From IMG/VR virus record IMGVR_UViG_3300033463_000112: a stretch of 64,000 nucleotides of DNA; one strand, written 5' to 3'. The DNA is from an uncultured virus (IMG/VR IMGVR_UViG_3300033463_000112). Its lineage: Duplodnaviria; Heunggongvirae; Uroviricota; Caudoviricetes. The position numbers and the translations under genes are program-made. The notes under the pieces were generated by a model, which had not been told where the DNA came from, searched no databases, and saw only the letters and a list, made by a program, of their open reading frames with translations. Shown here piece by piece: positions 4,255 to 46,764 of this stretch. The stretch's first letter is position 1. Every line of letters starts with the position of its first letter.

Positions 4255-4256
4255 CT

Positions 4257-15548: not shown

Positions 15549-16489
15549 TAGAATAGAGTTGTCTTGAAATAGTCCTGTCCTTTTGCCACAAAGAGCCGCT
15601 CGACGGATTCCGTCGGCCGGTCCGCGTTGAGGGTGGAGTTGATTCTGGTTTCCCAAATGCACTCGAATCTGTCAGACGGCATTTCGTATTCTGAGATATA
15701 GACGGGGACCGTCTGTTTCTCAATCCACGCGAATAGCGCCTCGGAGTCAAAGTCTGACATTTTCTTGGCCCCGTAGCCGTTTGTGTTGGCGTATGGCGGG
15801 TCCAGATAAATGATAGAATCGGGCTGAATCGCAACTTCGTTGTAGGAAAGCTGAGATATTTGTAACCGGGCAACGCGCTCCAGATTTTGTAACCGGGCAA
15901 CGCGCTCCAGATTTTGTAACCGGGCAACGCGCTCCAGATTTTGTAACCGGGCAACCCTTTCTAAATGCTCCAAATGTACGACCCCTTTATTAGCGTGGTC
16001 GGCTTCGTTTTTGGCGTTGATAATATCGTAAGCCGCGAGCCGCCTTTGCTGAACGTCGGGGATAGAATCAATGGGGGTTAGGTCGTATCCGTATTTTTCA
16101 ATCAGGGAATAATCCCGAAAGACTATCGCATAGTGTAGGGCCTTTTTGTAGTTCTCTACTTCACCGGCCGCATAGATATACGTTCTGCAATCCGTACCAA
16201 AGGAAAACAAGAGCTTTACAAAAGCGTCGTCCGTGGCGAAAAACTCCTCCCGTGATACCCACCGCGACTCGTTCCGGTACTTGCCTTCAAGAGCGTTGGC
16301 GAATATTTGCGGGTACGGTTTAATATCGTTGGCAACGACGGTCTGGTACTTCCCGGAGAACATGGCGGCGTGCGTAATAGCGCACCCACCGGCGAACAGG
16401 TCATACAGCGTACCTGCAGGAGGAAGATGCTCCAGTATTTCCTGAGCGATACGGGATTTTGAGCCTTTGTATGGTAATCCGTATTGCAT
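15548..16489 (-). CDS. DNA adenine methyltransferase (D12/Dam-like, alpha class)
   Basis: PYKGSK, DLFAGG, NDI and YLDPPY motifs. Confidence 0.88.
   Translation of the reverse strand: MQYGLPYKGSKSRIAQEILEHLPPAGTLYDLFAGGCAITHAAMFSGKYQTVVANDIKPYPQIFANALEGKYRNESRWVSREEFFATDDAFVKLLFSFGTDCRTYIYAAGEVENYKKALHYAIVFRDYSLIEKYGYDLTPIDSIPDVQQRRLAAYDIINAKNEADHANKGVVHLEHLERVARLQNLERVARLQNLERVARLQNLERVARLQISQLSYNEVAIQPDSIIYLDPPYANTNGYGAKKMSDFDSEALFAWIEKQTVPVYISEYEMPSDRFECIWETRINSTLNADRPTESVERLFVAKGQDYFKTTLF
15859..15955. repeat. 27-bp in-frame tandem repeat (~3.6 copies) in the methyltransferase
   Basis: Unit TTTGTAACCGGGCAACGCGCTCCAGAT; encodes LERVARLQN repeats. Confidence 0.95.
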
Positions 16490-16872
16490 TAGAATAGCCT
16501 CCCCTGAAACGGACCGCCATAACGTTGCTTGCGCTGGCGTTCGATGCTTTCACAAACGCCCATGATAGCCTCGGCCCGCCCCCGGAGGGAATCTTCATAG
16601 TCTTTCAGTTCCTCTTCCGTCTGGGCCACGTAGTAGCCCTTGCTGGTAGCAATCAGGCACGGAACTAAATCATTCTGGCGAATGTGGTTGATAATTTTTC
16701 GTATTCGTGCGGCCCCCGGCCGGATTTCCTGCGGGCAGGACTCTGCAATATTCTGGTTATAGACCGCGTTTTCGCGCCCGTAGGCCATTTTCAGCGTTGG
16801 AATGATAAATTCCATTGCCCGAAGCTCAGAATCGCTTAAAGGGGCCGTTTCTTGGCTAAATCCGTGTATCAT
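16489..16872 (-). CDS. hypothetical (wHTH-like) protein
   Basis: RIRKIINHIR...LIATSKGYYVA motif. Confidence 0.6.
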   Translation of the reverse strand: MIHGFSQETAPLSDSELRAMEFIIPTLKMAYGRENAVYNQNIAESCPQEIRPGAARIRKIINHIRQNDLVPCLIATSKGYYVAQTEEELKDYEDSLRGRAEAIMGVCESIERQRKQRYGGPFQGRLF

Positions 16873-16933
16873 TACTCAAAGATTTTGGTTAAACTTGGCG
16901 GCCGGAGGCGGTATCACCCGCAACCGACCGGAT

Positions 16934-22090: not shown

Positions 22091-22619
22091 TGTTATACGG
22101 TTTAAATTCGTAGAATGGCTTGATAGTACCCTTCTGGGTTCCGCGCGGAATGGCCTCCAGACGTTTGCAACGTTTGGTTTCCGGGGTGTAGTAGGCAATC
22201 AGGGCTTGCTCGTCAATGATATAGCCCTGACGCTGTAAGCGGTTACGCTGGAGTAGTTTGGCTTTAGGCTCAATGCGGAAATGCCGTTTTTGGCGGGGTT
22301 CCAGACCCCAACGAATCCGCATCAGGTCGGTGCGGTTCATTTTGGCCCGTGTGGCCTCGCGTTTCTTGTATGCCTCCGGGGTGTTGATTCTGGCCCCGTT
22401 TCCGCATCGTATAGCCCTTTCCCTGTTAAGATTCGAGATAAACTCTTTCGACTTATGCCAGCCGTGTTTTTCGGCCCGGCTTTTAATCGTCCATTTCGAG
22501 AGCCCTAAAGCCTGAGCTATTTCCTCGTTCGTTTCGTTCGGGTAGTGTTCCTGAATGTAGGTCAGTTGCTCACTCGTCAGGTGTTTGCTTTTGGGCTTTT
22601 TCATCTTTCCTAACCTCAT
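22077..22619 (-). CDS. HTH-containing hypothetical protein
   Basis: YPNETNEEIAQALGLSKWTIKSRA HTH-like segment. Confidence 0.65.
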   Translation of the reverse strand: MRLGKMKKPKSKHLTSEQLTYIQEHYPNETNEEIAQALGLSKWTIKSRAEKHGWHKSKEFISNLNRERAIRCGNGARINTPEAYKKREATRAKMNRTDLMRIRWGLEPRQKRHFRIEPKAKLLQRNRLQRQGYIIDEQALIAYYTPETKRCKRLEAIPRGTQKGTIKPFYEFKPYNNDTD

Positions 22620-22788
22620 TGAACCAACAGGAGCAAATCAACCCCGCGAACAGGCAAATAACCGCAAACGCATCAAAGAGTTGCGCGTTCGTGTCCGTGG
22701 CCTCGGCCAGAGCCTCGGCCCAATTCCATAGGGAGCAAGCGCCCCACGTGAACACGATGCAAAGTAGGATTGCAAATATCTTTTTCAT
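22570..22788 (-). CDS. small membrane protein
   Basis: Two hydrophobic segments; preceded by an AAATCTTTGAG motif. Confidence 0.55.
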   Translation of the reverse strand: MKKIFAILLCIVFTWGACSLWNWAEALAEATDTNAQLFDAFAVICLFAGLICSCWFNEVRKDEKAQKQTPDE

Positions 22789-22943
22789 ACGCTCAAAGAT
22801 TTGTCAAAGAAGCCCCCGCATTTCACAACGAAGGGGCGCTTTGCGCGAACGTGTCATAAAAGCCAGAAGGTGTAGTGTATCTTACTTTTCGTCCGCGCCC
22901 CAAAATTAAAGTGTTGTGTATTTAAGCCCCGCATAAACGCGGT

Positions 22944-23026
22944 TGGAGCCGGGCACTGGACTCGAACCAGCGACCGCATGGGAATCTGGCCGCCCCATGT
23001 GCTCTGGCCTGCTGAGCTAACCCGGC
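22944..23026 (-). ncRNA. tRNA-like RNA with 13-nt anticodon loop and encoded CCA
   Basis: Fully paired acceptor GCCGGGT/GCCCGGC-T-CCA, D arm GCTC/GAGC and T arm GCTGG-TTCGAGT-CCAGT; the CATGG/CCATG stem encloses GGCGGCCAGATTC. Confidence 0.75.
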
Positions 23027-24278: not shown

Positions 24279-24816
24279 ATTTTGTAAAATTAGGACCGGC
24301 GGCAGGGAGTCGCACCCCGTCCCGGTCGTTCTATTCACTGACGCATCTATTTGTCGTCGCCCTCAGCGGCGCATGGTAATCGAGTACTTTGCGGCAGTTA
24401 AATATTTTTCCCTATCCGTTATCTTATAACTCGTAGTAGTTGTTAAAGTCGTTTCTTTCGCTTTTCTTGCTTCTATTTTCTGCCAGCGCTACCTCACTGA
24501 TTCGTCCCAAATACCTAACAACGGATTCCCCAAACAAGGTGACGTTTGGAGAGCCGCCTTCTAATCATCGGCGCTACCGGCCCACGCGATTTTCCCTATC
24601 GTGCGAAAATTAAGCTGAACGCACACGGGAGGCCGTTTTCGGTCCGGCCAGACCTTCAGTGTTGTCAAATAACTCAAAGATTTGTTGAAAAAAGTAGGTT
24701 ACTTACTTTGAAATCCCGGAGAAAACCCCTAAATTAGCGGTTGAAACGTATAGGAGGCCGTTTTAAGGTTTCCCCTGGCTTTGTATATCAAAGAACTTAC
24801 TTACTCAATTCGATTG

Positions 24817-24824
24817 CAAAGTTA
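24817..24824 (-). promoter_or_regulatory. Bacteroidota-type -7 element (TAACTTTG) for the leftward early operon
   Basis: TAnnTTTG in the divergent AT-rich region opposite the repressors. Confidence 0.6.
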
Positions 24825-24920
24825 GGAGAAAAAACCGAACTTCCAAAACTTTTTGGAGAAAATCGACAAAATTTTATGGAGAAAGACGAAAAGCCGCCTA
24901 AAAACAAAAATTTTTGAGTT

Positions 24921-25265
24921 ATGGATAGCAACATTCAAGGGCGGCTTCAGATAGCAATAGACGCTATTTGCGCCGGAAACAAATCAGAATTTTGCCGACG
25001 CATCGGAAAGGACGTATCGGCATTGAAAGATATTCTCGGGGAAAAGAAAAGCGCCCCCGGGTATGTTCTTTTGTACTCCATTCTGTCGTCCGATTTGGGT
25101 ATTTCCCCCAACTGGCTTATGCTTGGCGAAGGGCCCATGCTTACGGGTTCCCCGTCCCCCGCGCATCATGGGAACGACGTGCACGATAACAACGTAGTGA
25201 TAATTGGGAATCTTGGCGACCTGAAGGATATTATCGCCGAGGCCATACGGGAGAATAGGGTATGA
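24921..25265 (+). CDS. CI-like HTH repressor
   Basis: GNKSEFCRRIG...ISPNWLMLGEGPML, typical of Bacteroidota phage repressors. Confidence 0.75.
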   Translation: MDSNIQGRLQIAIDAICAGNKSEFCRRIGKDVSALKDILGEKKSAPGYVLLYSILSSDLGISPNWLMLGEGPMLTGSPSPAHHGNDVHDNNVVIIGNLGDLKDIIAEAIRENRV

Positions 25266-25579: not shown

Positions 25580-25821
25580 TTCGTCTAAGTTTTCGGATAA
25601 TTTTTGCGACAAACTTGTTACGGACTATTACTTAATGTTACAATATTTTACAAGTTTAACCGACGTAAAGCTCTGGCAATCAACGCTAAAGCGCTCGTAG
25701 TAAGCGAGTTAGAAGGGGCCCTGTGGGCGCTTTTTCCCAGCACCACAGATAAGTGTAAAAAAGCCCCTTCAGAACGCTCTGGAGGGGTTTTTCGTTTAGA
25801 TTCGTCTAAGTTTTCGTCTAA
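25580..25821. other. putative attP region with arm-type direct repeats
   Basis: TTCGTCTAAGTTTTCG at 25580-25595 and 25801-25816, plus TTCGTCTAA at 25813, flanking a non-coding gap directly upstream of the integrase. Confidence 0.55.
25757..25792. terminator. bidirectional intrinsic terminator-like hairpin
   Basis: AAAAAAGCCCCTTCAGA-ACGC-TCTGGAGGGGTTTTT. Confidence 0.65.
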
Positions 25822-25835
25822 ATTTTTGAGTTATT

Positions 25836-27002
25836 ATGACACACAGCTTTAACTTCGACAAGGGGAGTATCAGACTGGTTGTATCGCACCGGGGCAAACA
25901 GTATAAGAAAGCCACCGGCCTAACGACGGAGGCCGCCCTCTGGCGGCGGGACGCGAAAACGCTTCGCGCCAAATGCAAAGATGCCCGGATTCTGGCCCGA
26001 CTGCTGGAGATTGACTCGAGGGCCCATGAGAAAGAGGCCGGGGTCGTTTCCGACGATGATTGTTTAAGGGTGATTCAGTATGCGCTGACAGGCGCAATGC
26101 CAGCCGCAAGAGTCGCGGCCGATTTCAAGATACAGAAGGTATCGTTTTGGGAATACTTTGAGGAGTGGGCGAACCGGCCGAGTACGCAGGTGCGCCAAAA
26201 AAAGCTCTGCTACAACAACGTGGCAAAGTTCATGGGGAAAGAATTTACATGGGAGGACGTGGACTCCGCCTTTCATTTCCGACTGGTCCAGAAGATGCGT
26301 GATGCCGGGTTTGGTATTAACTACCAATGGAAAACCGTCAGCCAGCTTAAAACCGTCATGAACGAGGGCCGGAAGCTCAAATATCACAGCAATCTGGAGT
26401 ATCAAGACTTCAAGGCAAAGCGGGAGGACCCCGACACAATCTACCTGACGGGCGAAGAGGTGGAGGCGCTCTGGAACTACCGGCCGAAGGGTGAACTGGA
26501 CCGCAAGGCCCGCGACCTGTTCCTTCTGGGCGTGTATTCGTGCGCACGGTATTCGGACTATTCCCGGCTTACGCTGGATATGATTCAGGACGGCGTGATA
26601 CGCTTTACTCAGGTAAAGACAGCTAATAGCGTGCTGGTTCCCGCCTCCCCTCGTCTGGTTGCTATCCTGAAGCGAAACGGTGGACGCGCCCCCGCGCTCG
26701 CGCAACAGCACCTTAACGAGTGGATTAAAAAGGTCTGCCGGGGTCTTGGGATTACTGAGAAAGTGGACGTGACCTCCAGCGACGGAGTAAAGCATACCAC
26801 CGAGCGCAAAGAAAAATGCGATTTGGTTTCGTCACATACCGCCCGGCGAACGGGTATCACGCTCTTGTATATGACCGGTATTCCGCTACAACAGGTGATG
26901 CTGATTTCCGGCCACAAAGACGAGGATTCGATACGGCACTATCTACGCCTGACAAAGCAGGAAAACGCCAGTATCTTGAAAGATAACCCGTTCTTTAAAT
27001 GA
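25836..27002 (+). CDS. int: tyrosine integrase
   Basis: CARYSD (R), K, SSHTARRT (HxxR), SGH and HY catalytic residues; N-terminal arm-binding/SAM-like region. Confidence 0.93.
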   Translation: MTHSFNFDKGSIRLVVSHRGKQYKKATGLTTEAALWRRDAKTLRAKCKDARILARLLEIDSRAHEKEAGVVSDDDCLRVIQYALTGAMPAARVAADFKIQKVSFWEYFEEWANRPSTQVRQKKLCYNNVAKFMGKEFTWEDVDSAFHFRLVQKMRDAGFGINYQWKTVSQLKTVMNEGRKLKYHSNLEYQDFKAKREDPDTIYLTGEEVEALWNYRPKGELDRKARDLFLLGVYSCARYSDYSRLTLDMIQDGVIRFTQVKTANSVLVPASPRLVAILKRNGGRAPALAQQHLNEWIKKVCRGLGITEKVDVTSSDGVKHTTERKEKCDLVSSHTARRTGITLLYMTGIPLQQVMLISGHKDEDSIRHYLRLTKQENASILKDNPFFK

Positions 27003-27042
27003 TTTGCGACCGGGCGTAGAATCACCCGCGCCCGGCCGGATT

Positions 27043-27414
27043 TCAATACCGCTTGTTAAACGACAAAAAGCCCTCTTTCGTGTTGGAATAGTCCCATAGG
27101 CAATCAACGTAGAAATGCGTAGAGCTTTTGATAGTTCCTTCAAAGTCGCTTGACATTCGGCAAGTGTGCCTCCCGTCTTTTGTCTTGACGGAGCCGATAA
27201 GGACGATTGAGCCGTTAGACAGCACGTGCCAGTACCCGCCGTCCTCTTGGCCGCCGGTAAAATAGAAGATTGCCGAGCCTCCGCTCAGGAGTTCCGCATT
27301 AAGAATCCCGTAGGTGGTATCGGCGCTGTAAATTCCGAGTTCGAGCCCGCCGTTCGGTTTCTGGCAGGCGACAATGGCCGCAAGGAACACGGCCAGAAGT
27401 AGAATCTTTTTCAT
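27043..27414 (-). CDS. lipoprotein (moron-like)
   Basis: MKKILLLAVFLAAIVAC lipobox; its own TATCTTTG promoter at 27437-27444. Confidence 0.75.
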   Translation of the reverse strand: MKKILLLAVFLAAIVACQKPNGGLELGIYSADTTYGILNAELLSGGSAIFYFTGGQEDGGYWHVLSNGSIVLIGSVKTKDGRHTCRMSSDFEGTIKSSTHFYVDCLWDYSNTKEGFLSFNKRY

Positions 27415-27489
27415 GCTTTGGTCTTTAGTGCTGATGCAAAGATACGAAAAAGCCCGGAAAAGGAGTACCCCCCCCCGTCCGGGCTTGTT

Positions 27490-27753
27490 TTAGCTCATTT
27501 TGTCATAGTCGTAGAGCGGAACGGCCGGATTGAGCGCCCCTGTCGCTGTTTCCACGTACAGGTTGTCAAAGCCGGTGTAGAGCCCGTTGGACCACATGAG
27601 CCCAATCCACGCGAGCGCGTCATTCACGCTCACGAAGTCTGCCGTGTGGAGCTTACCGCCTATTTTGATGCGGAACTCCTTTCGGCCGGTGCAGATAATC
27701 ACAATGGATTTCCGCACCAGTTCGTTTTTGTCCCTTTTTAACATTTTGAACAT
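27490..27753 (-). CDS. hypothetical protein
   Basis: Preceded by the AATCTTTGAGTTATG motif. Confidence 0.65.
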   Translation of the reverse strand: MFKMLKRDKNELVRKSIVIICTGRKEFRIKIGGKLHTADFVSVNDALAWIGLMWSNGLYTGFDNLYVETATGALNPAVPLYDYDKMS

Positions 27754-27769
27754 AACTCAAAGATTAAGA

Positions 27770-28594
27770 TTAAGAGAAAAACGCCTTAGCGGCGCTGGAT
27801 AGTTCTGTTTTCTTAGCGCACAGATAACGCTCGGTCATTGCCGTTCCTGAATGGCTCAGGATAGTGGAGATTTCCTGAACAGCCGCTCCACGGGTGTAGA
27901 GGTTCGTAGCACAAGAGCGCCGGGCCGCGTGGGACGACGCAAACTGCCACTTTGGCCCCCTTTCCTCCTTACCGGCTTTCTGGACCACCACCTCGTCGTC
28001 GATTCCGGCCAGCTTACACATTCGACGTACCGCCTCGTTGTAGCACTTGGTCGTAATCGTGATTTCCGGGTGGTCTGATACCCACTTGATACGCTCTTCC
28101 AGTCCCGGTTTCAGGGGGATAGACCCCGCCTTTTTCGTTTTCTGGGCCACGTACCGGAGCACCCCGTCAGTGATATTTTCGACTCTCAGATTCTTTGCGT
28201 CACTGACCCGCAGGCCAGTGAAAGCGCAAATCAGAAACAGGTTTTTGACAAGCTCCTGTTTGCCCGTGTGCGTGGGAGCACTGGCGAACAGCGTAAGCTC
28301 GTCCTCTGTCAGATAGGTGTTCATGGGTCTTACGGCCTTTGCCGTCAGAATCTTGCGCCAGTCCGTCGGGAGTTCGATTTCCTCGCAATAGCGGTTGAAA
28401 AGTGACTTTGCGTAGGCCATGACGGTCTTAACGGTGTTGGGAGCAAGCTCAGAGGTTAGGTGGTCGTGAAACTCATACAGCGCCGAGCGGGTAACGTCTT
28501 TCCAGTCGTAGATACCGACGGCGCTCAGGTGCTTGCGGAGGGTCCCGCCAGCGCCTTTTTGCATCTTGTCGATTGCTTCTTTTAGTGTTCTCAT
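27770..28594 (-). CDS. second tyrosine recombinase lacking an arm-binding domain
   Basis: TGLRVSD, K, SSHAARRS, LSH and TERY motifs; only 274 aa. Confidence 0.9.
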   Translation of the reverse strand: MRTLKEAIDKMQKGAGGTLRKHLSAVGIYDWKDVTRSALYEFHDHLTSELAPNTVKTVMAYAKSLFNRYCEEIELPTDWRKILTAKAVRPMNTYLTEDELTLFASAPTHTGKQELVKNLFLICAFTGLRVSDAKNLRVENITDGVLRYVAQKTKKAGSIPLKPGLEERIKWVSDHPEITITTKCYNEAVRRMCKLAGIDDEVVVQKAGKEERGPKWQFASSHAARRSCATNLYTRGAAVQEISTILSHSGTAMTERYLCAKKTELSSAAKAFFS

Positions 28595-28660
28595 AACTCA
28601 AAGATTTTTAAATTGGCGGGCCGGTGGTCGGTCAGGACCGCCAGCCCGAAATGGGGAAGA

Positions 28661-28891
28661 TTACTTTTCGCCTTCGGCTTTGATATAATCTTCAAGGGCC
28701 TTCAGGCACTTTTCGATAAGGACCTTCAGCGCGTCCTGAATCTCATTGGCGGCGAAGAGGGCCTTCTTCTTTTTGTCGTCGAGGTTTTCGTGCCTCGAAA
28801 GCGCGGCGGAGGCCACGGTGAGCTTGATTCGTTCGTCGGTTGCGTGGTCGGCAATCCACATAAGCTCGTTAACAGAAAAATCTACTTGCAT
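28661..28891 (-). CDS. hypothetical protein
   Basis: Starts at the repeated motif. Confidence 0.7.
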   Translation of the reverse strand: MQVDFSVNELMWIADHATDERIKLTVASAALSRHENLDDKKKKALFAANEIQDALKVLIEKCLKALEDYIKAEGEK

Positions 28892-28958
28892 AACTCAAAG
28901 ATTTAAAGTTGAACATAGGATTGGCAAGCGGGCCGGGAATCACCCCGCCCCGCCCGTT

Positions 28959-29327
28959 TTAAAAGCCTTTCGGCCCGGGTCCCTCCACCTTCTCGGTGGC
29001 AAAGGAATAATGAGAACCGCCGCAGATAATGATAAAGTCAACTATCTTAATGTCGGTTCCGATTACGGCCTTTTTCCACGACTCGGCCATTTTGATTTCG
29101 TCCTCCGTCGGCCGGGGGTCGCCGGTCCGGCGCACAACGACGATAAAGCCCTTTGTGCCGAGCGGGTTCTTTTCTGCATCTTCCAGACGAATAGGGATAT
29201 TGTCTTTATCCAGAAGGATACAGGTGTTTGGGTGGTCGGAGTCCACGAGCGCGAATCCGTGGTTTACGAAGGTAACTGCGCCCCATGAGCTTGTAATGGG
29301 CGTAGAAAATGCTTGTTTTTCGGTCAT
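28959..29327 (-). CDS. degenerate RadC/JAB-like protein
   Basis: C-terminus GDPRPTEDE...DIKIVDFIIICGGSHYSFA resembles RadC but lacks the HxH motif. Confidence 0.55.
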   Translation of the reverse strand: MTEKQAFSTPITSSWGAVTFVNHGFALVDSDHPNTCILLDKDNIPIRLEDAEKNPLGTKGFIVVVRRTGDPRPTEDEIKMAESWKKAVIGTDIKIVDFIIICGGSHYSFATEKVEGPGPKGF

Positions 29328-29794
29328 AACTCAAAGATTTAGAACTGGAGAAGGAAAGGGCGGTCAGGCCCCCTCCTCCTTTTTGCGTTTCGGCTCGCAG
29401 AATCCGCAGTGGCCGAATATCACCATAGAAGCACTGTTGTAGCGCTCTTTCTTGCACCCGGTCTTGTTGCTCCAGAACTGGCAATTTACGCAGGGTTCGT
29501 CGTTTTGTGGTTTCATAAGCTCAAAGTGTTAATGATTGGCGGAGGTGGGCGCGTATCAGGCCCCGCCCCCCTTGTTACTTCCCGAGGATTTCCTTTTCGA
29601 TTTCGGCCGCCAGATGCCGGGCCTTATCCTGAAGGCCGAGCCCGAACGTGCCGGATAGATAGAAAAGCTCCATTACGTGACCTTTGGCAATCTTGCCGTC
29701 CAGCAGGCCGGAGGCTACCATGTTGGCAGTGCCCTCCAGATGCTCCTCGGCGTACTTTTGTAGGTTTTCTTTTGTGATTTCTTTCGGCATAGCT

Positions 29795-30004
29795 CTAATT
29801 TTTAATAATTCTAAATTCGTCCTCTTCCGGGATAACCGCAAGGCTGCCCCAAGTGCCGTGTAACTGGCCGATTCCGTCAATGTGTGTCACCTCACCGGTG
29901 CGGCCGTTGTATGCGCGGGCCTGAAGGTCCTTGCCGTTGGAGTCGTTCATGCGTACTATCTGGATAGTGTCGCCCACTTTTACGTTCGGGTTATTCGTTC
30001 TCAT
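29795..30004 (-). CDS. DUF4314-like protein
   Basis: GDTI..V.M.D...GRTGEVTHIDGIGQLHGTWGSLAVIPEED.F pattern. Confidence 0.7.
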   Translation of the reverse strand: MRTNNPNVKVGDTIQIVRMNDSNGKDLQARAYNGRTGEVTHIDGIGQLHGTWGSLAVIPEEDEFRIIKN

Positions 30005-30176
30005 GGCTGACTTCCGCTAAGGTAGTGAGAATTTTGTTTAATTCCGCTATTGTGTCGTCAAATTTGACGCGGGCAATGGGAATTTGCTCAGTTACCCGGC
30101 GAAGGTCGCCGATAGTATGGAGAACACACTCGCCGATAAGGTCCAGTTGCTCCTTTGTGAAAGCTACTTCATACAT
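29991..30176 (-). CDS. hypothetical protein
   Basis: Starts at the repeated motif. Confidence 0.65.
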   Translation of the reverse strand: MYEVAFTKEQLDLIGECVLHTIGDLRRVTEQIPIARVKFDDTIAELNKILTTLAEVSHENE

Positions 30177-30249
30177 AACTCAAAGATTTTAAAAGTTTTA
30201 CTTAGTTGTTTGGAGTCCGGGAAGGGAATCACCCCCGCCCGGGCTTGTT

Positions 30250-30519
30250 TCAGTACGGGAACGAGCACCCGTTTTCAAACCACTTACAGACGGACTCGGT
30301 GGCCGCGTCCAGCGTCAGACTATCCATGCCTGAGAGGATATTGTTTCCTACCCAGAAGGATACCATGTAGATTTCCTCGTTACTTTCCCGTTTCCACGGG
30401 TCAAGTTCTACCCTTACGGACTCTTGTTTGTCCGGGCCGGTGTACTGGAGCCGTGCTTCGTTTTCGTAGCAGGCGAATAAGATTTGGCGCTTGATTTCGT
30501 TTTTGTTTTCCTCGGTCAT
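30250..30519 (-). CDS. hypothetical protein
   Basis: Starts at the repeated motif. Confidence 0.7.
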   Translation of the reverse strand: MTEENKNEIKRQILFACYENEARLQYTGPDKQESVRVELDPWKRESNEEIYMVSFWVGNNILSGMDSLTLDAATESVCKWFENGCSFPY

Positions 30520-30577
30520 AACTCAAAGATTTAGAGATTTGGCGAAGGCGGGACCGGCCGGGGCCCCGTCCCCGTGA

Positions 30578-31060
30578 TTAGAAGTAACGCGGGTTCATGT
30601 GTTGCGCGATTTTCAGGCACAATTCATCGGCCTTAGCGGCCGCGTCTTGCATTTCCTTAATGAGCTTTATCGGCTTTCCCTCGTCCGCAAAATTGCGTGC
30701 GGCTGCCCTGAATCCAGAGGCGTAGTCCTGCAGGGCCAGTTTGCACTGAATCAGGTCCTCAAAGGTCATTTCTACGTTTTCGGTCTTGCCTTCCGGCCTC
30801 GCGTCCCAGCCGGATACCCATTCGAGCATCAGGAGGGTGTCGGGCTCTTTGTAGTCCCTGTTGGACCGCCAGACTTCCTCGGCTGCGGCCTTGATAGAAT
30901 CGCGTTCGCAATCAAAGATTACGCACTCGGTCCCGGCGGGCGCGTGCCCGGCCACGTTGCCCGAGAAAACAAGCTCATCGAAGATTTCCCGCATCATCAT
31001 ATACCCGAGTTGATAGTCCGGGCTGGCGGGGTCTGTGCTTTTGATAGATAGCTTATACAT
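30578..31060 (-). CDS. hypothetical protein
   Basis: Starts at a motif variant. Confidence 0.7.
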   Translation of the reverse strand: MYKLSIKSTDPASPDYQLGYMMMREIFDELVFSGNVAGHAPAGTECVIFDCERDSIKAAAEEVWRSNRDYKEPDTLLMLEWVSGWDARPEGKTENVEMTFEDLIQCKLALQDYASGFRAAARNFADEGKPIKLIKEMQDAAAKADELCLKIAQHMNPRYF

Positions 31061-31115
31061 AACTCAATGATTTAGTTGGTTTAGCGAAGGTAGGGGCGGT
31101 CAAGCCCCGGCCTCC

Positions 31116-31514
31116 TTAATCATCAACGAACAGCATAATGTCCTCCACGGAAAAGTCTATATCCTCGTCCGCATCGAGCCCCTCGTCGTAGCAGTAGTCG
31201 TCGATTTGTTCCCGGATTTCGTTTGTAAGGTCCCTATCGGCGCGTTCGGCCAAGCAGCGGTCCCTATCCATTATCCCCAGCGCCCGGAGGGCTCTTTGGT
31301 CGAAATCCTCGATATTCTCTTTGCATCGGAGCCACACAGCCCGCCGGGGCTCGTCCTTTCGTAGAACGTCGAACATTTCCGGGGTCAGCTTTGAAAGGTC
31401 AAGTTTCACGGAGTCGCCAGTATAGTAGCCGGTAATTTCGAGTACCGAGCCGTCAAAGGTAAAGCTCTTGCTGCCGTTAATGATTTTGATTGCGTTTTCG
31501 TAGGTCTGTTTCAT
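31116..31514 (-). CDS. acidic hypothetical protein
   Basis: Starts at the repeated motif; D/E-rich C-terminus. Confidence 0.7.
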   Translation of the reverse strand: MKQTYENAIKIINGSKSFTFDGSVLEITGYYTGDSVKLDLSKLTPEMFDVLRKDEPRRAVWLRCKENIEDFDQRALRALGIMDRDRCLAERADRDLTNEIREQIDDYCYDEGLDADEDIDFSVEDIMLFVDD

Positions 31515-31571
31515 AACTCAAAGATTTAAAGATTTGCAGAGGCGGCTCCGGTCAGGGAACCGCCCCCGTTT

Positions 31572-31820
31572 TTACTCATTCGGCTGCAGGTCGTCGGTCC
31601 ATAGGTCGTAATCGTCGCCCGCAAAGCAAAAGCCACCGCAGCAGAGGTTTGAATCCAGTAGTTTGCGGTCCAGTTGCAAGCAATAATCAGACTCCCGGAC
31701 GGCCTCGATAGCCTCGGCGGCGTTTTCGTACACCGCATCGGGCTCCCAGCCTGTTAAATTCGCGTTGGCGGTCACGTAGGCCATGCCGCCGACAGCCAGA
31801 AATACATAGATTTTTTTCAT
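31572..31820 (-). CDS. acidic hypothetical protein
   Basis: Starts at the repeated motif. Confidence 0.65.
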   Translation of the reverse strand: MKKIYVFLAVGGMAYVTANANLTGWEPDAVYENAAEAIEAVRESDYCLQLDRKLLDSNLCCGGFCFAGDDYDLWTDDLQPNE

Positions 31821-31861
31821 AACTCAAAGATTTTTAGATAGTTGGCGAAGAAGGGCGAGTA

Positions 31862-32290
31862 TCAGTCCCCCTCCTCCATTTTTTCAAGCTCAGAGATAAA
31901 CGGCGCTAAGTACGAAAAATCATACTTCTTCATTGCGTGCTCCCGGACGTTGGGGTTAAAATCCTCCGGCCGTGGCGCATATCTGGATAAATCGTCCCAT
32001 GTCAGACGTATTGCCTCGGCGGCGGTCCCCGGCTCAATTTCCTCCCCGGCGGTTAATTTCTCCAGCACGGCGGCAATGAAAGGCCGGGCCCCGGCGGCGC
32101 GGTTTGTTTTCAGGGCTTTTAGCGCGTTTCTCAGGATTGTTTGGATAGCTGCCCCCTCCTCTACTTTTCGTATCAAATTTGCGGCGTTTTCGGCCGTTTC
32201 CCGGTCATTTGCGCGGCGCGTCGATGATACCAAAAGCAGGAAGGGCAGCTCAATCAAGACTGCAAGCGGAATAATCCATAAAGGGCTCAT
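31862..32290 (-). CDS. membrane-anchored hypothetical protein
   Basis: N-terminal hydrophobic helix. Confidence 0.6.
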   Translation of the reverse strand: MSPLWIIPLAVLIELPFLLLVSSTRRANDRETAENAANLIRKVEEGAAIQTILRNALKALKTNRAAGARPFIAAVLEKLTAGEEIEPGTAAEAIRLTWDDLSRYAPRPEDFNPNVREHAMKKYDFSYLAPFISELEKMEEGD

Positions 32291-32528
32291 TTTTGTAAAG
32301 ATTTTTAGTAATTGGCGAGCGTGGGTCCGGTCAGGGGCCCCCGCCCTTTCTTTTTCTCAGGAATACCCCCCCCGTCTTTATTTTTGGGAGTGGTCCTTTG
32401 CCATTTCGTTAATGATAGCGGCAATAATCATCATGGGAATAAAGATAGTCATAACTCAAAGATTTTAAAGATTTTGAACCCCCGGGCGCGGGTCGGGCCC
32501 CCGGGGATTAGGTCGGCATGGTGGTTTG

Positions 32529-32963
32529 TTAGTCGGTCACTTTTTCGTAATAGGCGCGGCCCTCTTCGGAGAGGTTATTTACGCACCAATTATCGACGGC
32601 CAGCCACGCGGCATTGTACTCGCGGGCGAGGCGGTCAAAGTGCTTATAGGCCCGCACTTTGTTGTGCTTTTTGGCCCGCTCGGCGGCGGTGTAGTGGGCG
32701 AAGAGCTTATGATTCAGGACCAATGCAAGCTCGGTCATGAACTTGTAATTGTCCCGGCCGCCGAGCACGGCGCTTTTGAACGTTTCCCGGATAGCCCTGA
32801 TAGGGTCCTCGCCGAACTGCGGGGCCCTTTCGGCTATTGAGAAGTCCTGCCAGAGCGTCGTCAGCGGCTTGTAGCCATTTTCGGCGGCCTGTTCCCATTT
32901 CGGGAGCTTACTCAGAAACTCGTTAACCTTTTTCATGTCGATTTCGATGAACTTGATTTCCAT
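32529..32963 (-). CDS. hypothetical protein
   Basis: Starts at the motif; TTLWQDFSIAE...TELALVLNHK...YYEKVTD. Confidence 0.7.
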   Translation of the reverse strand: MEIKFIEIDMKKVNEFLSKLPKWEQAAENGYKPLTTLWQDFSIAERAPQFGEDPIRAIRETFKSAVLGGRDNYKFMTELALVLNHKLFAHYTAAERAKKHNKVRAYKHFDRLAREYNAAWLAVDNWCVNNLSEEGRAYYEKVTD

Positions 32964-33031
32964 AACTCAAAGATTTTAGATTGTTTAACATTGGATTGGC
33001 GGGCGGGGTCCCGGTCAGGGGGCCCGGCTCG

Positions 33032-33331
33032 TTAATCGTGGTCGATATGCACCCGCACGCGGCCGATTTTCGGGAACTTGGCCCGCACCGCATCTGAGAA
33101 CTCAGGACCCCGGGATAGCTCCCGACAGCCCTGCTCGCGCTCGTGCGGGTGGTCCGAGTCATACCATTCTGTATATCCGTCGCCGTATGCCTTCACGCAG
33201 GCGTATATCTCGAGGGTCATGTTATCGAAATAGTATGCACCCCCTTCCCGGCGTGGGATAATTTCCACTTCTGACTCGTCGATATATTCGCCGAGTATAT
33301 CCTTTGCAAGTTTGATAATAGCTTGTTTCAT
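33032..33331 (-). CDS. hypothetical protein
   Basis: Flanked by the repeated hairpins. Confidence 0.65.
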   Translation of the reverse strand: MKQAIIKLAKDILGEYIDESEVEIIPRREGGAYYFDNMTLEIYACVKAYGDGYTEWYDSDHPHEREQGCRELSRGPEFSDAVRAKFPKIGRVRVHIDHD

Positions 33332-33398
33332 AATGTTTTTTAGCTTGTTTTGATTGGGTCCCGGGGTCCCGTATCAGGGGGCCCCGGGAGCGGTACAT

Positions 33399-34205
33399 TT
33401 AGCAAGATAGCATTTTTACAATTTCCGGCGTTTTCATGCCGCGCAGGTCGTAAAAAGATACTACCTTTTTGAGATTCAGCCCGGCCTCCTTTGCGCACGT
33501 TTGCACATGGTCCCGGTCATTTATCGGGGTTCCATGTCCGATTGTAAAATAGGACGATTTGAGCCCCGGCACGACCTCCACAAAACGCAAAAAATGCCTT
33601 CTCAGCATGGACGGGTTAACGAGGGGATATGCCATTTTTCGCACGTCTATATATTGCCCGGAGTCCTTAATCCTTACAAACATATTGCAGGACTCAGTGC
33701 TGCAGCGGGAACCGAAATAAACGTACAAATTAACCCGGTATCCGTTTTTTTCAAGTCCTAAAACGGCATTTGTCAGGGCGGCGGCCGTTTGTGCAATTTC
33801 GTTTTTATCGACGCTGCAATCGGCGCTCCCGTTGTAACAAAGATTTAGAACTTTGCTATCTTTGTATGTAACTTTTTTCGTTGCATACATGGACCGGGGC
33901 AGGCCTATCAGGGCGGCGGCTACATTTGCGGTCCCGCCGCAAACTGCGGCGTATCGTCTTACTTTGTACCCCTCCCCGGCGGCGTTGATATGCACCCCGG
34001 CGGCGGCCTTCAGGGCGGCGGCGCTTTTTTCGTCCCCGTCCCGCAGCAGCACGTTTGCGGCGGCGTATGATTCAGTCCCGGAGAACTCCTCGCTCCCGGT
34101 CTGAGAACCGAGGCGGCGGCCCCTGAAAACGTTATTTTCCGGCGTGGTATCAAGATAGCGCCGGAGCCCGTCTAAATTTGTGAAACTTTGTACATGGTTT
34201 TTCAT
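33399..34205 (-). CDS. putative VWA-like partner of the MoxR ATPase
   Basis: Adjacent to the AAA ATPase; alternating beta/alpha pattern; no intact MIDAS motif seen. Confidence 0.5.
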   Translation of the reverse strand: MKNHVQSFTNLDGLRRYLDTTPENNVFRGRRLGSQTGSEEFSGTESYAAANVLLRDGDEKSAAALKAAAGVHINAAGEGYKVRRYAAVCGGTANVAAALIGLPRSMYATKKVTYKDSKVLNLCYNGSADCSVDKNEIAQTAAALTNAVLGLEKNGYRVNLYVYFGSRCSTESCNMFVRIKDSGQYIDVRKMAYPLVNPSMLRRHFLRFVEVVPGLKSSYFTIGHGTPINDRDHVQTCAKEAGLNLKKVVSFYDLRGMKTPEIVKMLSC

Positions 34206-34265
34206 AACTCAAAAGATTTTTAATTTGTGCTCCCGGGGTCCGTATCAGGGGCCCCGGGGCTCGTG

Positions 34266-35405
34266 CTACATTGCAAGTGCGAAGGCGTTATCTTTGTGAC
34301 TCAGCCCGGCGCGAAGTATGTTTATTTCGTCCCGGTCATATCCCCCCGTCACTGCAAGACGGACGGCCTCGGCGGTATCCATGCCCGCCTTCATGAACTT
34401 TGCAAGACGGGAAATATTGCGATACCCGAGGACGATATGAACCCCGGCGGCGGCGGCCGATTTTCTCATGTCCCGAATGAACTCGAGCACTTCGATTGAG
34501 CCCCCCGCCAAATGTTTTTCAATTTTGCCGCAATAATCGAACTGCAGCGGGCAAAATCTATTCAGGGAGGCGGCATCTAAAACGCTGCGCCCGTTGTATT
34601 CTTCCGTTGCACCCCGGCCGCAGGTATTTCCGGCCGCGATACAATGAAAATCGGGGTGCATTTTTACACGCCCGCAGGGGAAGGTAAAATATCCGTTTGC
34701 GAGGGCGGCGTTTAGTGTTACAAGTGTATCAGGGCAGGAGGCGTCGAGCTCATCTAACATGAAGAGCCCGCCGTTTTTAAAAGCCCGGAAAAATTCCGTT
34801 TCATGATAGGTCCCGTTTGCATCTATAAACCCGGTTAATTTGTACTCGTCCGTTATCGAATTTTGATAATAGAACTCGATACCGAGGCGGCGGGCAATTT
34901 GCTCGCAAACGTGATTTTTACCGGACCCGGCCGGACCATAAAGATAGACGGACTCGCCGAGCTCCATGCAGGCTAAAATCGTGTTAAATTTATCATGCAG
35001 GACCTCGGCGGGGCTATCTTTGCGGGCGGCCTTCTCAGGCTCGGCCGGGACGGGTGCGGGCTCGGGTTCCGGCATGGGTGCGGGAACCGGGGCGGGCTCG
35101 CCCGGGCGGCGGGTGCGGTGCGAAATATTGCGCCGTATTTCGTCGTATTCAGGGGTCCCGAAATATACAAAACTTTGCAATTTTTCCGGACCGCAGGAGG
35201 CCAAAATTCCGGCGGCGTTTTCAGGGCTCAAAACGGCGGCATTATCGCAAAGTTTATACATAAATTTCCAGCCGTACATATTGCCGAGGCGGGTATTATT
35301 CCACGCCTGAGAATGTGAACCGAGGAACCATGTGGAACCTTCCACGATAATAGCGCTCTTTTTGCCGTTAACATAGCACTTCAAAATGTTTACATTGTTT
35401 TTCAT
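34266..35405 (-). CDS. MoxR/CbbQ-like AAA+ ATPase
   Basis: Walker A GPAGSGK, Walker B FMLDELD, IAAGNT and LDAASLNRF motifs. Confidence 0.85.
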   Translation of the reverse strand: MKNNVNILKCYVNGKKSAIIVEGSTWFLGSHSQAWNNTRLGNMYGWKFMYKLCDNAAVLSPENAAGILASCGPEKLQSFVYFGTPEYDEIRRNISHRTRRPGEPAPVPAPMPEPEPAPVPAEPEKAARKDSPAEVLHDKFNTILACMELGESVYLYGPAGSGKNHVCEQIARRLGIEFYYQNSITDEYKLTGFIDANGTYHETEFFRAFKNGGLFMLDELDASCPDTLVTLNAALANGYFTFPCGRVKMHPDFHCIAAGNTCGRGATEEYNGRSVLDAASLNRFCPLQFDYCGKIEKHLAGGSIEVLEFIRDMRKSAAAAGVHIVLGYRNISRLAKFMKAGMDTAEAVRLAVTGGYDRDEINILRAGLSHKDNAFALAM

Positions 35406-35869
35406 AATGCGTAAAATTTTAATTGTTTGACTTAGAACTGCGGCGGGGTTTTCGGCGCCCGGGGCAATTTTCCCGGGTGCGGTATTGCACCCGGGGCGGC
35501 GTGAGTCAAAACAACTAAAAATCTAACATTTTGAGTTATCGCGTATCTTTCAGGATTGAGCCGCCTGCATAGGGTACTCCATGAAGGGCCCCACTGCAAT
35601 AGGACCCGGGAAAAATCCCGGGCTGCAACATTTTCCGCAGTGCTCAAAAGCGCCGAGTTTCGTCAGATTTCCGTACTAAATACGCCGTATTGTCAAAGAA
35701 CTTCCCCGGCAGCGTGGACCCTTTCAGCGTGGATTTTTGCGGGGTTCAAAAACCCGGGCCCGGCGGCAAATAGATTGATATGTATTATAGGACTGCGCCG
35801 TTACTGATAAATCAATAACCCGTCACCTGCGACGGCGTTTTAACATATCAAACTATCAAAGAACTGATA

Positions 35870-35877
35870 CAAAGGTA
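35870..35877 (-). promoter_or_regulatory. Bacteroidota-type -7 element (TACCTTTG) for the small-gene array
   Basis: TAnnTTTG in the AT-rich divergent region; counterpart TATATTTG on + at 36186-36193. Confidence 0.6.
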
Positions 35878-36213
35878 GTGATAATATTTTAATATGCAAT
35901 AGATATTTTTACTTTTTTAGGGGTTGAACCCTAAATAAATTTTCTTAAAAATGTAAGTGCTTAAAAATCAATCATTTGCATGGCTCAAAAATTTGGGTTT
36001 TGAACCCGGGCGCAAAAGGAGTAAATAAAACTATTTAAAAAGCCTCTCAGGGGCGCTATAAGCGCACCAAATAACGCAGGAGGTATAATGATACTATAAA
36101 CCTATGAAAGTGCGCCAAATCGCCCGGAAGGCGGCAATACGGGCAAATTACGCCGCCCGGGAGCGTGGAACTCGGGAAAAATCCCTATATTTGCGGAAAA
36201 ACACTAAAAACAC

Positions 36214-36729
36214 ATGGAAAAAAAGTTAACCGGACTAAATAACCGGGTTTTGTCCCGGCGCGAGGAGGCGGCAATGTATTTGCACGTTTTCGGCGGGGTT
36301 GATGATTGGGCCCTGCTTTATAGAATTGCTCACCCGGGCGAATTTGAGCGGGACCCGGCAAAATCGGAAGGGGCGATGGTATCCACGTGGAAAAATAGCA
36401 CGAAAATAACCCGCTGCTGCGAGCGTATCAGGGCGCAATTTCAGGACCATATCAGCGACGAAATAAACGCCGTAAAAGATACGATTTTTGCCGGGGCTGA
36501 TGATGATATGAAGGCGGGAAGCGTGGATTATACTAAACCCGAAAACCAAAAAAGGAAATTAAACGCTATCATTGCGGGTGCAACGGACCCGGGCGAGGCC
36601 CTCGATGCGCTCAAAGTGATAATATCAGGGCAGCGGGCTGATTCTCAGGCCGCAAAGGAAGGGCGGCAGGTACGGGCTTATTTGCCGCTATTGTGCTATC
36701 AATGCCCGCTCTACAAAGAAAAACGTTAA
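36214..36729 (+). CDS. hypothetical protein (possible terminase small subunit)
   Basis: 171-aa helical protein with its own promoter, next to a G-tract/T-tract region; function inferred from context only. Confidence 0.45.
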   Translation: MEKKLTGLNNRVLSRREEAAMYLHVFGGVDDWALLYRIAHPGEFERDPAKSEGAMVSTWKNSTKITRCCERIRAQFQDHISDEINAVKDTIFAGADDDMKAGSVDYTKPENQKRKLNAIIAGATDPGEALDALKVIISGQRADSQAAKEGRQVRAYLPLLCYQCPLYKEKR

Positions 36730-40509: not shown

Positions 40510-41400
40510 ATGATTACTGAATTTTCCCCTATCCCGGAAGGATTCTTTGGCGAAAACGGCCTTACGGCCACTTCTGCGAACCATATCGCAAACCTCCTGA
40601 AGCTCAGGTATGAAACAATCGAGAATGAGCTCGATTCGCTGAATTTCGTAACTGAGAAAATGTCTATCGTGGGTTCTGAGGTTGAGAACCTTATGCGCTC
40701 CGCCCGCGTGATTCCGCTCGAGGATATTCGCGTGAAGCTGGACGAAGTGGCCCGGTGCAAGGGCTTTATCGCGTTCCTCCGCGAGGCTATCAAGTGCAAG
40801 TCTGAGCTTGCGCAGGAAATTGAGGACTTCCAGAGCCCGATTCCCGCCGCTCCGCTTGCGCCAATTCCCGAACGTCCCGTTTCCGAACAGGCCGTCATTG
40901 CCGGGTGGTCCGTTGGCGAACGGGTCAAGTTTCTTGCAACCGAGGCCCGGGCCGCTACCTACGGCAAGTATATCCACCCCGGCGGCGTGCTTGACAAGGC
41001 ACGCGACCGCGCTTACGAGGCTTTCATGGAGCCGACTAAGGTTGCAATGGCTGGCCGTGATACGGCCTTCATTAAGCGCGAAACGGCGGTATCTACGGCC
41101 GAAATCGACGCTGTGATGATGAGCCTTCAGGCCGAGCACAGGCGTTCCGAGGCTGAGCTTAACGGCTACAAGCACGACGTTGAATACAAGGTACAGGCCG
41201 ACGCGCAGCGCAAGCTGGACGAGTACCGTGAAAAGAAACAGGCCCACGAAAAGGCCGTGGCCGAACACGAGCGCCAGTGTGACGCTATCGCGCTGGCAGA
41301 CAAACAGGCCAGACTGGACCGCCGCAAGCTCATTGAAGAGCTCAAAATCATTATCCCGAACCAGTATCGGGACCTGTATAACGCTGTGAATAACGGGTAG
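40510..41400 (+). CDS. coiled-coil hypothetical protein
   Basis: 296 aa; GLTATSANHIANL, AFLREAIK and YGKYIHPGG segments. Confidence 0.75.
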   Translation: MITEFSPIPEGFFGENGLTATSANHIANLLKLRYETIENELDSLNFVTEKMSIVGSEVENLMRSARVIPLEDIRVKLDEVARCKGFIAFLREAIKCKSELAQEIEDFQSPIPAAPLAPIPERPVSEQAVIAGWSVGERVKFLATEARAATYGKYIHPGGVLDKARDRAYEAFMEPTKVAMAGRDTAFIKRETAVSTAEIDAVMMSLQAEHRRSEAELNGYKHDVEYKVQADAQRKLDEYREKKQAHEKAVAEHERQCDAIALADKQARLDRRKLIEELKIIIPNQYRDLYNAVNNG

Positions 41401-41680
41401 CCGTATGGCCCGGGGCCAGTCCCCGGACTACGGCGCACGGGTATAGTGTAAGCAAAATATGTGACTTAAAACCAATCGTGGGGGCGCGTCACTGCCCACA
41501 GCTAAAATCAAGTGCAATGGTAGCACACGGGTATTTGGAACCTGCGTAGCCGTTCGATTCGGCAAAATGGCTCCAGTGCCGAAAAGTCAGTTTTTCTGCC
41601 TTTGTCCTCGCCCTTGTTGGCACTGGAGGTCCTCGCCTTCGCCATTGCCCTTACCTTAGTGGCTTACACTATATCCCGGC
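41398..41680 (+). ncRNA. candidate structured ncRNA with embedded tRNA-like domain
   Basis: 12-bp closing stem 41442-41453/41662-41673; D, anticodon and T arms at 41512-41564; 10-bp stem 41571-41580/41619-41628. Confidence 0.55.
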
Positions 41681-42144
41681 TCGTTTTAATATAACAAAAT
41701 TGTTTCATAGATGAACATTAAAGACTGGCAGAACCGCTTTGCGGAACTGGCCGCAGAGTGCCAGAAAGATTGCTGCGCTCGCATCGAGAGCGTCACGGTC
41801 AGGAATTGGGACGATTCGGGCACTACCCCGGTATGCGACAAGGCGTATTTCAAAGTAGAAATCGACTTCAGATGATACTTCCACCGATGCCAAACGCCGA
41901 GGCCACTGAGAGCCTCCGTAAGCTCATGGCCGCCAATCCGGACCTTACCGTTGCCGACGTGGAACGAAACCCGGAAACTGGCCTGTATGAGCTAAAAAAG
42001 CCTCCCGTTTCCGAGAGGCCAAATCTTTGAGTTATTCGACAACATCACGTCGTCTTTGCCGCAAAGGTGCGAAATTTTCACTTTATTTGCAAAATTCGCT
42101 AAAAAATAGGCGTTTTTGGCAAATAAAATCCGTTATTTCTTGAA

Positions 42145-42549
42145 TTAGATAGGCTCAGTGGCCCTTTTCACCTCCCTAATCGGGATTCCGTGGAAAAAGA
42201 GCATCATCTTCCGCTTAAGCGGGTACTTGTCGTCGTGAAAGCCTTTCGTATCCTCAACGACCAACTGGCCGTCGGCCTTCTCATACACGTAGTCCGCAAT
42301 ATAACACACCTTGCGCTCGGCGACTCTCTGGACGGCTTTAACACGGCCGTACTTTAATTTCTTCAATTCCGTGCGATATTGGGTAGGGAGTAGTTGGTAT
42401 TCAACCTGACGGCGAAGATTGAAAATTTCGCCGTTTTTGGCCGCTTCCTGCAGGAATAGCCACCGGTGGTACTCCACCTTTGACGCAAACTCGCCTTCGG
42501 CCGTTACGACCTTCTTGTTTCCGTATTTCGGTCTTGCTCCAAAAGTCAT
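42145..42549 (-). CDS. DUF1064-family endonuclease-like protein
   Basis: KYGNKK, F.SK.E, LRRQV.Y.L, YIADYVY and VVEDTKG motifs. Confidence 0.85.
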   Translation of the reverse strand: MTFGARPKYGNKKVVTAEGEFASKVEYHRWLFLQEAAKNGEIFNLRRQVEYQLLPTQYRTELKKLKYGRVKAVQRVAERKVCYIADYVYEKADGQLVVEDTKGFHDDKYPLKRKMMLFFHGIPIREVKRATEPI

Positions 42550-46707: not shown

Positions 46708-46764
46708 CCAGCGCCCGCGAGCGCGTATAAGAGGCCACTTTGAGTTACATAGATAACCGCTTAG

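Follow-up and report, generated by a model that had tools for sequence, protein, structure and literature searches.

Introduction

Phages P1 and P7 make a trans-acting antisense RNA, c4, which pairs around the ribosome binding site of the phage's own ant mRNA and whose sequence differences set specificity between relatives, as described in PMC12197685. In Bacteroides thetaiotaomicron, for which PMC7366714 gives no Hfq or ProQ homologue, the host RNA GibS represses by pairing a long single-stranded seed across start regions that lack a Shine-Dalgarno sequence, with two metabolic targets shown in that account. Repeated sequences before phage genes are described for the PeSL cassettes of T4-type phages, where an intergenic G...C stem-loop module holding a promoter and a Shine-Dalgarno sequence, with stems that terminate, precedes variable small genes, and where indels are bounded by the module with crossovers at several positions (PMC2839356, PMC4122927), and for cluster K mycobacteriophages, where the asymmetric SAS/ESAS repeat, including a Shine-Dalgarno core, lies just upstream of many start codons, has a single opposite-strand copy and was suggested to bind RNA or protein (PMC3203893). 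Here we describe a 64,000-nucleotide stretch of DNA from an uncultured tailed phage (IMG/VR record IMGVR_UViG_3300033463_000112), called the window below, in which an array of small genes carries a repeated module of a hairpin followed by a near-identical start motif, and in which a predicted small RNA (sRNA) is antisense to that motif.

The locus resembles each of these systems in part. Whereas c4 is described as targeting ant mRNA with seeds in loops, here 12-20 of the phage's own genes have one common target, the predicted seed lies in a linear stretch between two hairpins, and there is no Rfam match. GibS, in contrast, is a host RNA, and its description in PMC7366714 includes no repeated target in a swappable array. 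Unlike PeSLs, the module lacks a per-gene consensus promoter and a U tract, its hexaloop is conserved and an antisense RNA matches it; it differs from the SAS in host phylum and sequence, an antisense RNA not being proposed in PMC3203893. A literature search weighted to open-access papers returned no phage sRNA that represses many of the phage's own genes via a repeated start motif; each part has precedent, and the combination was not found in the literature searched.

The locus offers a concrete and testable answer to why some phages repeat one sequence before many starts, the question of function that was left open for the cluster K SAS (PMC3203893). It joins phage antisense immunity RNAs with module-bounded shuffling, by which possibly toxic early genes might be swapped without losing control. 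The change of up to about 11-19 targets together with one seed is an unusually strong natural covariation for an sRNA. Bacteroidota lack Shine-Dalgarno control, and the seed-target classes that occur in nature are candidates for orthogonal translational switches in that phylum.

Results and discussion

A predicted small RNA is antisense to a start motif repeated through an early gene array

The array consists of 18 open reading frames (ORFs) on the minus strand, from 27490 to 35405, transcribed from a promoter at 35877, and is a hypervariable early accessory operon (Table 1). With up to two mismatches, AAATCTTTGAGTTATG occurs 16 times in the window, where 0.03 occurrences were expected from 100 shuffles. 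Eleven of these are gene starts within 27751-32976, and the start motifs of the array come to 13 when the 4-T variant at 34205 and the degenerate one at 29516 are counted, in agreement with an initial annotation that had reported about as many near-identical starts. A typical hairpin stands before 14 of the 18 ORFs, the first and last having atypical hairpins and the coupled genes with starts at 30004 and 29790 having none. The GC-rich hairpins and loops that the annotation had described were recovered within a few bases of its positions (28617-28648, 29349-29380, 31537-31568, 33359-33389 and 34229-34260), as was a hairpin and motif pair outside the array, its hairpin at 16899-16930.

Copies without an ATG were likewise found at 24668-24683 (minus strand) and 42021-42036 (plus strand), a third, claimed at 46737, being only a partial match. 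The copy at 42021-42036 is the opposite strand of the seed of the predicted sRNA, a unit with its own promoter, a 5' hairpin, an open seed and a terminator. The annotation had taken the ATG-less copies to mean that the motif is more than a ribosome-binding site; this view is supported, its basis being the putative antisense RNA at 42057-41996 and not the reason then given. The sRNA has a fold z of -3.2 and one full-length copy in the window. Rfam, including the C4 RNA model, gave only tRNAs at gathering score, with three sub-threshold unrelated matches around 41800-42200. RNAalifold on a MAFFT alignment recovered only four pairs because the stems differ in length, and the structure is therefore taken from single-sequence folds.

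Comparison between phages showed the predicted anatomy of the sRNA to recur, with its conservation, its complementarity to the starts, the joint change of seed and targets and an exchange of genes bounded by the module. We think it probable that a single sRNA acts in trans to block translation of most genes in the array and that the repeated module doubles as crossover homology, in the manner of PeSL. Each separately translated gene would sit behind a standard socket, in which a hairpin right after the upstream stop codon is followed by about 25 open, A/U-rich bases that would act as both translation start region and sRNA target. The sRNA, made from a housekeeping-type promoter, would pair across -14 to +3 and block ribosome loading, and once it accumulates, the leftward operon's leader would be switched off together with most of the array and a few early genes elsewhere. 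A new infection would give a burst of early proteins before the sRNA builds up, followed by shut-off; in a prophage the array would be kept silent, and incoming phages of the same seed class might be silenced too. The hairpin would most likely insulate the start from upstream coupling and keep the target open, a bound protein also being possible, and the repeated socket would supply short homology through which genes could be gained, lost and swapped yet stay under the same RNA control.

A wider proposal is offered tentatively, as possible rather than probable: that the cassette array is open-ended, any gene that recombines behind the standard start being silenced at once; that the seed classes AACUC, AAGGC, AAUGC and AGCUA mark RNA-defined immunity and exchange groups; that the sRNA descends from an RNA that was antisense in cis to the first early gene; and that the same principle explains the cluster K SAS.

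The predicted RNA is kept in related phages

The whole unit (promoter, 5' hairpin, open seed and terminator) was present in all 14 phages first examined, with a promoter of the form TAnnTTTG in 11 and CAnnTTTG in three. Its hairpins vary and are mostly GNRA-capped, while the seed is conserved. An independent set comprised 65 portal loci, 38 of them with a portal identity of at least 56%, and among these 38 the sRNA was found for 25 (24 in the locus and one elsewhere in the record; some are duplicates). It occurs in either orientation relative to the portal operon and is therefore not merely a 3' untranslated region. Without exception, the reverse copy of the motif falls within the unpaired bases of a short promoter-terminator unit that holds no ORF, and it often takes in the complement of the ATG.

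The 27 more distant loci included one (L184) that has an sRNA at another place, pairing best with the four starts of its early operon, and three (L167, L169 and L171) without an sRNA at the site, of which the two with listed starts have no common start motif. That a clade lacking the RNA there also lacks the shared motif speaks for the proposed regulation. Other arrangements were seen as well. The early operons of L202 (G019) and L167 have no shared start motif; in them a different hairpin-like element recurs ahead of several genes, in some cases downstream of a promoter of the gene's own. In six of the more distant loci (L180-L183, L185 and L197), at about 16170-16215 (minus strand), a short promoter-terminator unit lies antisense over the start of the first early gene, and its overlapped or seed bases differ between close relatives, as if under diversifying selection. 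L143 carries two tandem sRNA-like units with different seeds at about 4250-4440.

Seed and targets change together

Leaving aside the sRNA's own locus, the 13 matches that pair best with the seed of the window, genome-wide, were the leader at 24688, 11 array starts and the integrase start; the genes at 16872 and 22788 ranked after these, and the repressor-like gene at 24921 slightly lower. The same partner pattern was found in four relatives, and cognate seeds paired far better than 200 shuffled seeds in 9/9 phages. The duplex at the leader site reaches 25 continuous pairs when the 5' part of the sRNA is included. The CI RNA of phage P4 is a parallel for this site.

The leader site bears on a rival explanation, in which the sRNA is real and acts otherwise, by translation activation, by cleavage at the hairpin base into single-gene mRNAs or by premature termination, with translation block secondary. 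As the strongest target, and one without an ATG, it is a place where termination control is more likely, and every target abuts a conserved-loop hairpin able to bind a nuclease or other protein. Most targets, however, cover the start codon together with A-12 and A-13, which stimulate initiation according to PMC6847099, and array starts are predicted to be mostly open when the sRNA is absent, leaving little to activate. We judge this explanation unlikely and prefer a direct block of translation.

Seeds and starts were seen to switch together. A motif-independent scan returned AAGGC seeds in place of AACUC, and the GCCTT starts that these predict were seen in 8/8 cases in G015 and 11/11 in G018; in G017, GCATT-type starts were noticed first and the matching AAUGC seed was found afterwards. 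In phage I the seed is AGCUA, and its four best partners are the matching starts. Over 14 phages, cognate pairs did better than permuted ones (0/200,000 permutations), a result driven by the switched seed classes. The switched seeds fall on separate branches of the portal tree; as the phages are related and not independent, G015 and G018 count as one switch.

Co-change of all copies is also predicted if a phage protein binds the motif as a DNA operator, akin to a stoperator, with the reverse copy an extra site near a promoter and the sites changing with the specificity of the protein. The repressor-like and integrase genes bear the motif, as such an operator would allow, but even within a single phage the A run and the -5 pentamer are separated by a distance that shifts by several bases (mostly 5-8), and the reverse copy is fixed in the open part of an ORF-less promoter-terminator unit. 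A test for G-U wobble, which could have favoured RNA pairing, gave no such preference (137/159 starts; wobble-compatible 33/1057 against a mirror count of 56/1172), and C>T did not differ from G>A (p 0.42), the wobble test being confounded by selection against G in start regions. This negative result keeps the DNA operator as a rival, if an improbable one, and also counts against repression by the sRNA.

Further points weigh against sRNA-mediated repression. The transcript and its repressive action are predictions from sequence, and the lone RNA run (X20) gave short contigs covering a small share of the array. Among the 38 close loci, 13 gave no sRNA, two of these covering the expected site; of the other 11, three end less than 800 bases from the portal, seven are rearranged or end early, and one is apparently the same phage as a rearranged record. 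Exact pentamer matches were found at 5/15 starts in G017 (at least four pairs in 10/15), at 1/8 in G016 and at 0/12 in phage I, where 5/12 starts pair well. Among phages of the GAGTT class, a non-cognate seed often binds better than the cognate one, and 5/16 tested array starts of the window pair weakly (-2.7 to -9.8). That the integrase and the repressor-like gene are also targets is a poor fit to simple prophage silencing, and suggests a general damping of early functions over pure prophage maintenance.

The module as a start region

Motif, ATPase and recombinase searches led to syntenic arrays in other uncultured phages, and module statistics were drawn from 166 distinct modules in 20 arrays or fragments. 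GAGTT occupies -5 to -1 in 113/166 modules; A is found at -12 and at -13 in 89% each, and G (a purine) at -3 in 84%, the A frequencies being affected by module selection, which demanded an AAA run somewhere in -20 to -6. In A at -12/-13, a purine at -3 and low structure, the module start regions have the features of host starts, the base preferences being given as Bacteroidota initiation features in PMC6847099. The full motif is no commonplace of hosts: it occurred as one copy in each of 9/301 genomes of the order of G001, and the reversed control also gave nine.

Hairpin stems were picked by Watson-Crick pairs only, which left 157/166 modules usable. On the mRNA strand these stems hold 210 G-T against 49 A-C oppositions, and from this excess the hairpins are taken to fold on the coding strand; the bias shows coding-strand folding, and would fit RNA or single-stranded DNA alike. 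Among 87 six-base loops, U, G and A occupy positions 2-4 in 94, 99 and 94%, giving the hexaloop N-UGA-Y-N. The stems are diverse, with 109 different 8-mers, and no U tract follows them (mean 1.6 T in 8 nt).

Several other functions were considered for the module and rejected. Terminators on the antisense strand were set aside since the A run ahead of the stems has a mean of 3.4 in 8 bases, and the G-T bias favours the mRNA strand. A leaderless promoter, with the motif as -7 and +1 at the ATG, would keep the first T of TAnnTTTG, which is not kept, and its spacing varies; likewise, by base frequencies across the 166 modules, no module positions keep TAnnTTTG as a per-gene consensus promoter. Pairing of the Shine-Dalgarno kind appears to be excluded by spacing.

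The initial annotation had also offered, as one alternative, that the modules are reiterated boxB/boxA-like antitermination or RNA-processing sites. The hexaloop does resemble the phi21 boxB CUAACC as given in PMC12550061, and the hairpins fold on the mRNA strand. A likeness to boxA is seen only near promoters: GTTCTTTGA follows the promoter-like sites at 35877 and 24824, with a further copy near 35692, and it is present in the one Bacteroidota rRNA leader compared. Such promoter-proximal copies were found in four phages (W, B, O and N) of the 20 sources scanned. At the individual genes, by contrast, TCTTTGA occurs in only 33/166 modules and is replaced wholesale in the GCCTT and GCATT lineages, which retain hairpins. 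A conserved boxA, as judged by the gamma-proteobacterial consensus GYTCTTTAANA (PMC5725501), was not seen at each module. Antitermination would also leave the antisense copy and its co-change unexplained, and a per-gene boxB/boxA function is extremely unlikely.

One stretch of hairpin sequence, the 36 bases at 32310-32345, was also found in RNA run X20, in a contig with a depth of 983, and in X3 and X10 contigs that run on into another gene start; the source may be a repeat or leader of the host that has this loop too.

Genes are exchanged at the module

Array gene content differs strongly even between close phage pairs, and comparison of gene order showed gains and losses to be bounded by the module, as expected if the genes were exchangeable cassettes. 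In 12 events with a common downstream gene, identity extends back to -6 to -30 in eight and into the hairpin (-42 to -57) in four; with junctions extending from -6 to -57 there is no single fixed crossover base. Alignment at the downstream junctions crossed the common motif in 9/11 cases and cannot place crossovers. In a strain from run X5 (98-99% identical), two contigs overlap at 31511-31529, a 19-bp core of the module on the minus strand, and diverge on both sides of it into foreign sequence, with a different hairpin following in one contig and a different gene start in the other. We infer one extra motif-bounded cassette in this strain, the joined insert being deduced and not observed. Contigs of this type gave no module-to-module joint within one strain, contigs being apt to drop rare forms.

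The 274-aa tyrosine recombinase near the end of the array invites another explanation, in which it carries out integron-like or RNA-guided site-specific cassette exchange with the motif as core site. Integron cassette arrays are made of one-gene units, a downstream hairpin usually travelling with the gene, with a tyrosine recombinase nearby. Here the recombinase has catalytic motifs that look intact and closes each array that was covered to its end, and of the 12 upstream junctions eight lie in the stretch from the hairpin base to the ATG. The likeness ends there: the protein scores 23.4 bits against the integron integrase model TIGR02249 (cut-off 265), junctions lack a fixed crossover base, spacer length is variable and the hairpins are favoured on the coding strand. 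The family has 322 clusters and was present in 10/10 further records checked, including G019, which has neither module nor RNA. The single-protein locus search with the recombinase query gave no loci, and alignment against genome contigs gave none. Site-specific exchange is very unlikely, and of the annotation's cassette proposal the module-bounded exchange holds, while the crossovers are spread from hairpin to ATG and the recombinase is no integron integrase. Exchange through homology supplied by the module, with the genes kept under sRNA control, is the reading we prefer.

Near-identical strains differ far more over 34800-35480, which takes in the leader and the 5' portion of the ATPase gene, than over the rest of the array; this region is a recombination hotspot.

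The initial annotation had suggested that the cargo may serve host takeover or anti-defence. Pfam gave no match for 114 of the 118 cargo proteins from relatives that were searched (125 were listed), and PADLOC matched 0/19 window proteins.

Table 1. Positions of the array, the predicted sRNA, its candidate targets and other features in the window.
Feature	Position	Strand	Remark
Predicted 62-nt sRNA	41996..42057	-	start site inferred from promoter spacing
sRNA 5' hairpin	about 42054-42038	-	
sRNA unpaired seed, antisense to start motif	42037-42021	-	17 open bases
sRNA terminator hairpin and U run	42020-41999	-	
sRNA promoter, housekeeping-type (-33 TTTG, 20 nt, -7 CAnnTTTG)	42062..42093	-	kept in relatives
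Array promoter -7 element, then boxA-like GTTCTTTGA	35856..35877	-	
AAA+ ATPase (phrog_249, CobS-like), first array gene	34266..35405	-	sRNA pairing at start -2.7, i.e. unpaired
Hairpin, 4-T start motif and DUF7192 gene (33399-34205)	33399..34260	-	
14 small variable cargo ORFs with modules	28661..33389	-	
24-aa ORF	32378-32452	-	cargo ORF
DUF4314	29795-30004	-	cargo ORF
RadC-like JAB	28959-29327	-	cargo ORF
Hairpin, start motif and 274-aa tyrosine recombinase (27770-28594)	27770..28648	-	kept at distal end of operon
Last array gene with start motif, weak hairpin	27490..27766	-	
ATG-less target in leader of leftward early operon	24661..24684	-	sRNA pairing -36.5 kcal/mol; same site in relative B
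Leftward early promoter -7 element and boxA-like GTTCTTTGA	24788..24824	-	
Integrase gene with sRNA-pairable start	25820..27002	+	sRNA pairing -19.3
Integrase gene	25836-27002	+	
Helix-turn-helix (HTH) repressor-like gene with sRNA-pairable start	24908..25265	+	sRNA pairing -15.8; also in relatives B and C
Degenerate motif before gene 22570-22788	22789..22804	-	sRNA pairing -16.5
Module outside array, before gene 16489-16872 (phrog_2113)	16870..16930	-	
Partial motif in head-operon leader	46735..46750	+	weak sRNA pairing (-12.8); doubtful status
HTH regulators	24921 and 37334		
Excisionase-like gene	23800		

Phage, host and other features of the window

The window holds most of a temperate tailed phage, with terminase, portal and capsid genes at 43-49 kb, and the phage was found in bovine and goat gut sequencing runs. 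The region 27000-36500 gave no match in the INPHARED phage set, where the phage is without a close relative among named phages. Promoters with TAnnTTTG at -7 and TTTG at -33, the Bacteroidota consensus according to PMC7366714, and starts without Shine-Dalgarno sequences suggest a Bacteroidota host type; together these features point to a temperate, Bacteroidota-type phage. The lone metagenome-assembled genome containing a relative (L093 / G002, with array and sRNA) carries the label Clostridia, which conflicts with the Bacteroidota-type promoters and is probably a binning error.

Beyond the array, a 123-aa gene at 27043-27490 with its own promoter and terminator is moron-like, and its slot is empty or otherwise filled in several relatives. 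A long structured untranslated leader at 24340-24660, downstream of the site at 24670, has no Rfam match at gathering score. The window encodes tRNAs, with a cluster upstream of gene 22570-22788 (Rfam, ARAGORN); a tRNA-Arg at 22944-23026 was called by ARAGORN alone, without Rfam support, and a tRNA-like sequence at 41400-41600, after the primase operon, was spotted by eye where ARAGORN made no call.

In the cluster K phage Adephagia, the single reverse SAS among 13 matches in the stretch examined lies between genes 92 and 93 (L216:20683-20695), in the loop of a long predicted hairpin within a non-coding gap and beside a second strong hairpin. Its setting fits a candidate anti-SAS RNA.

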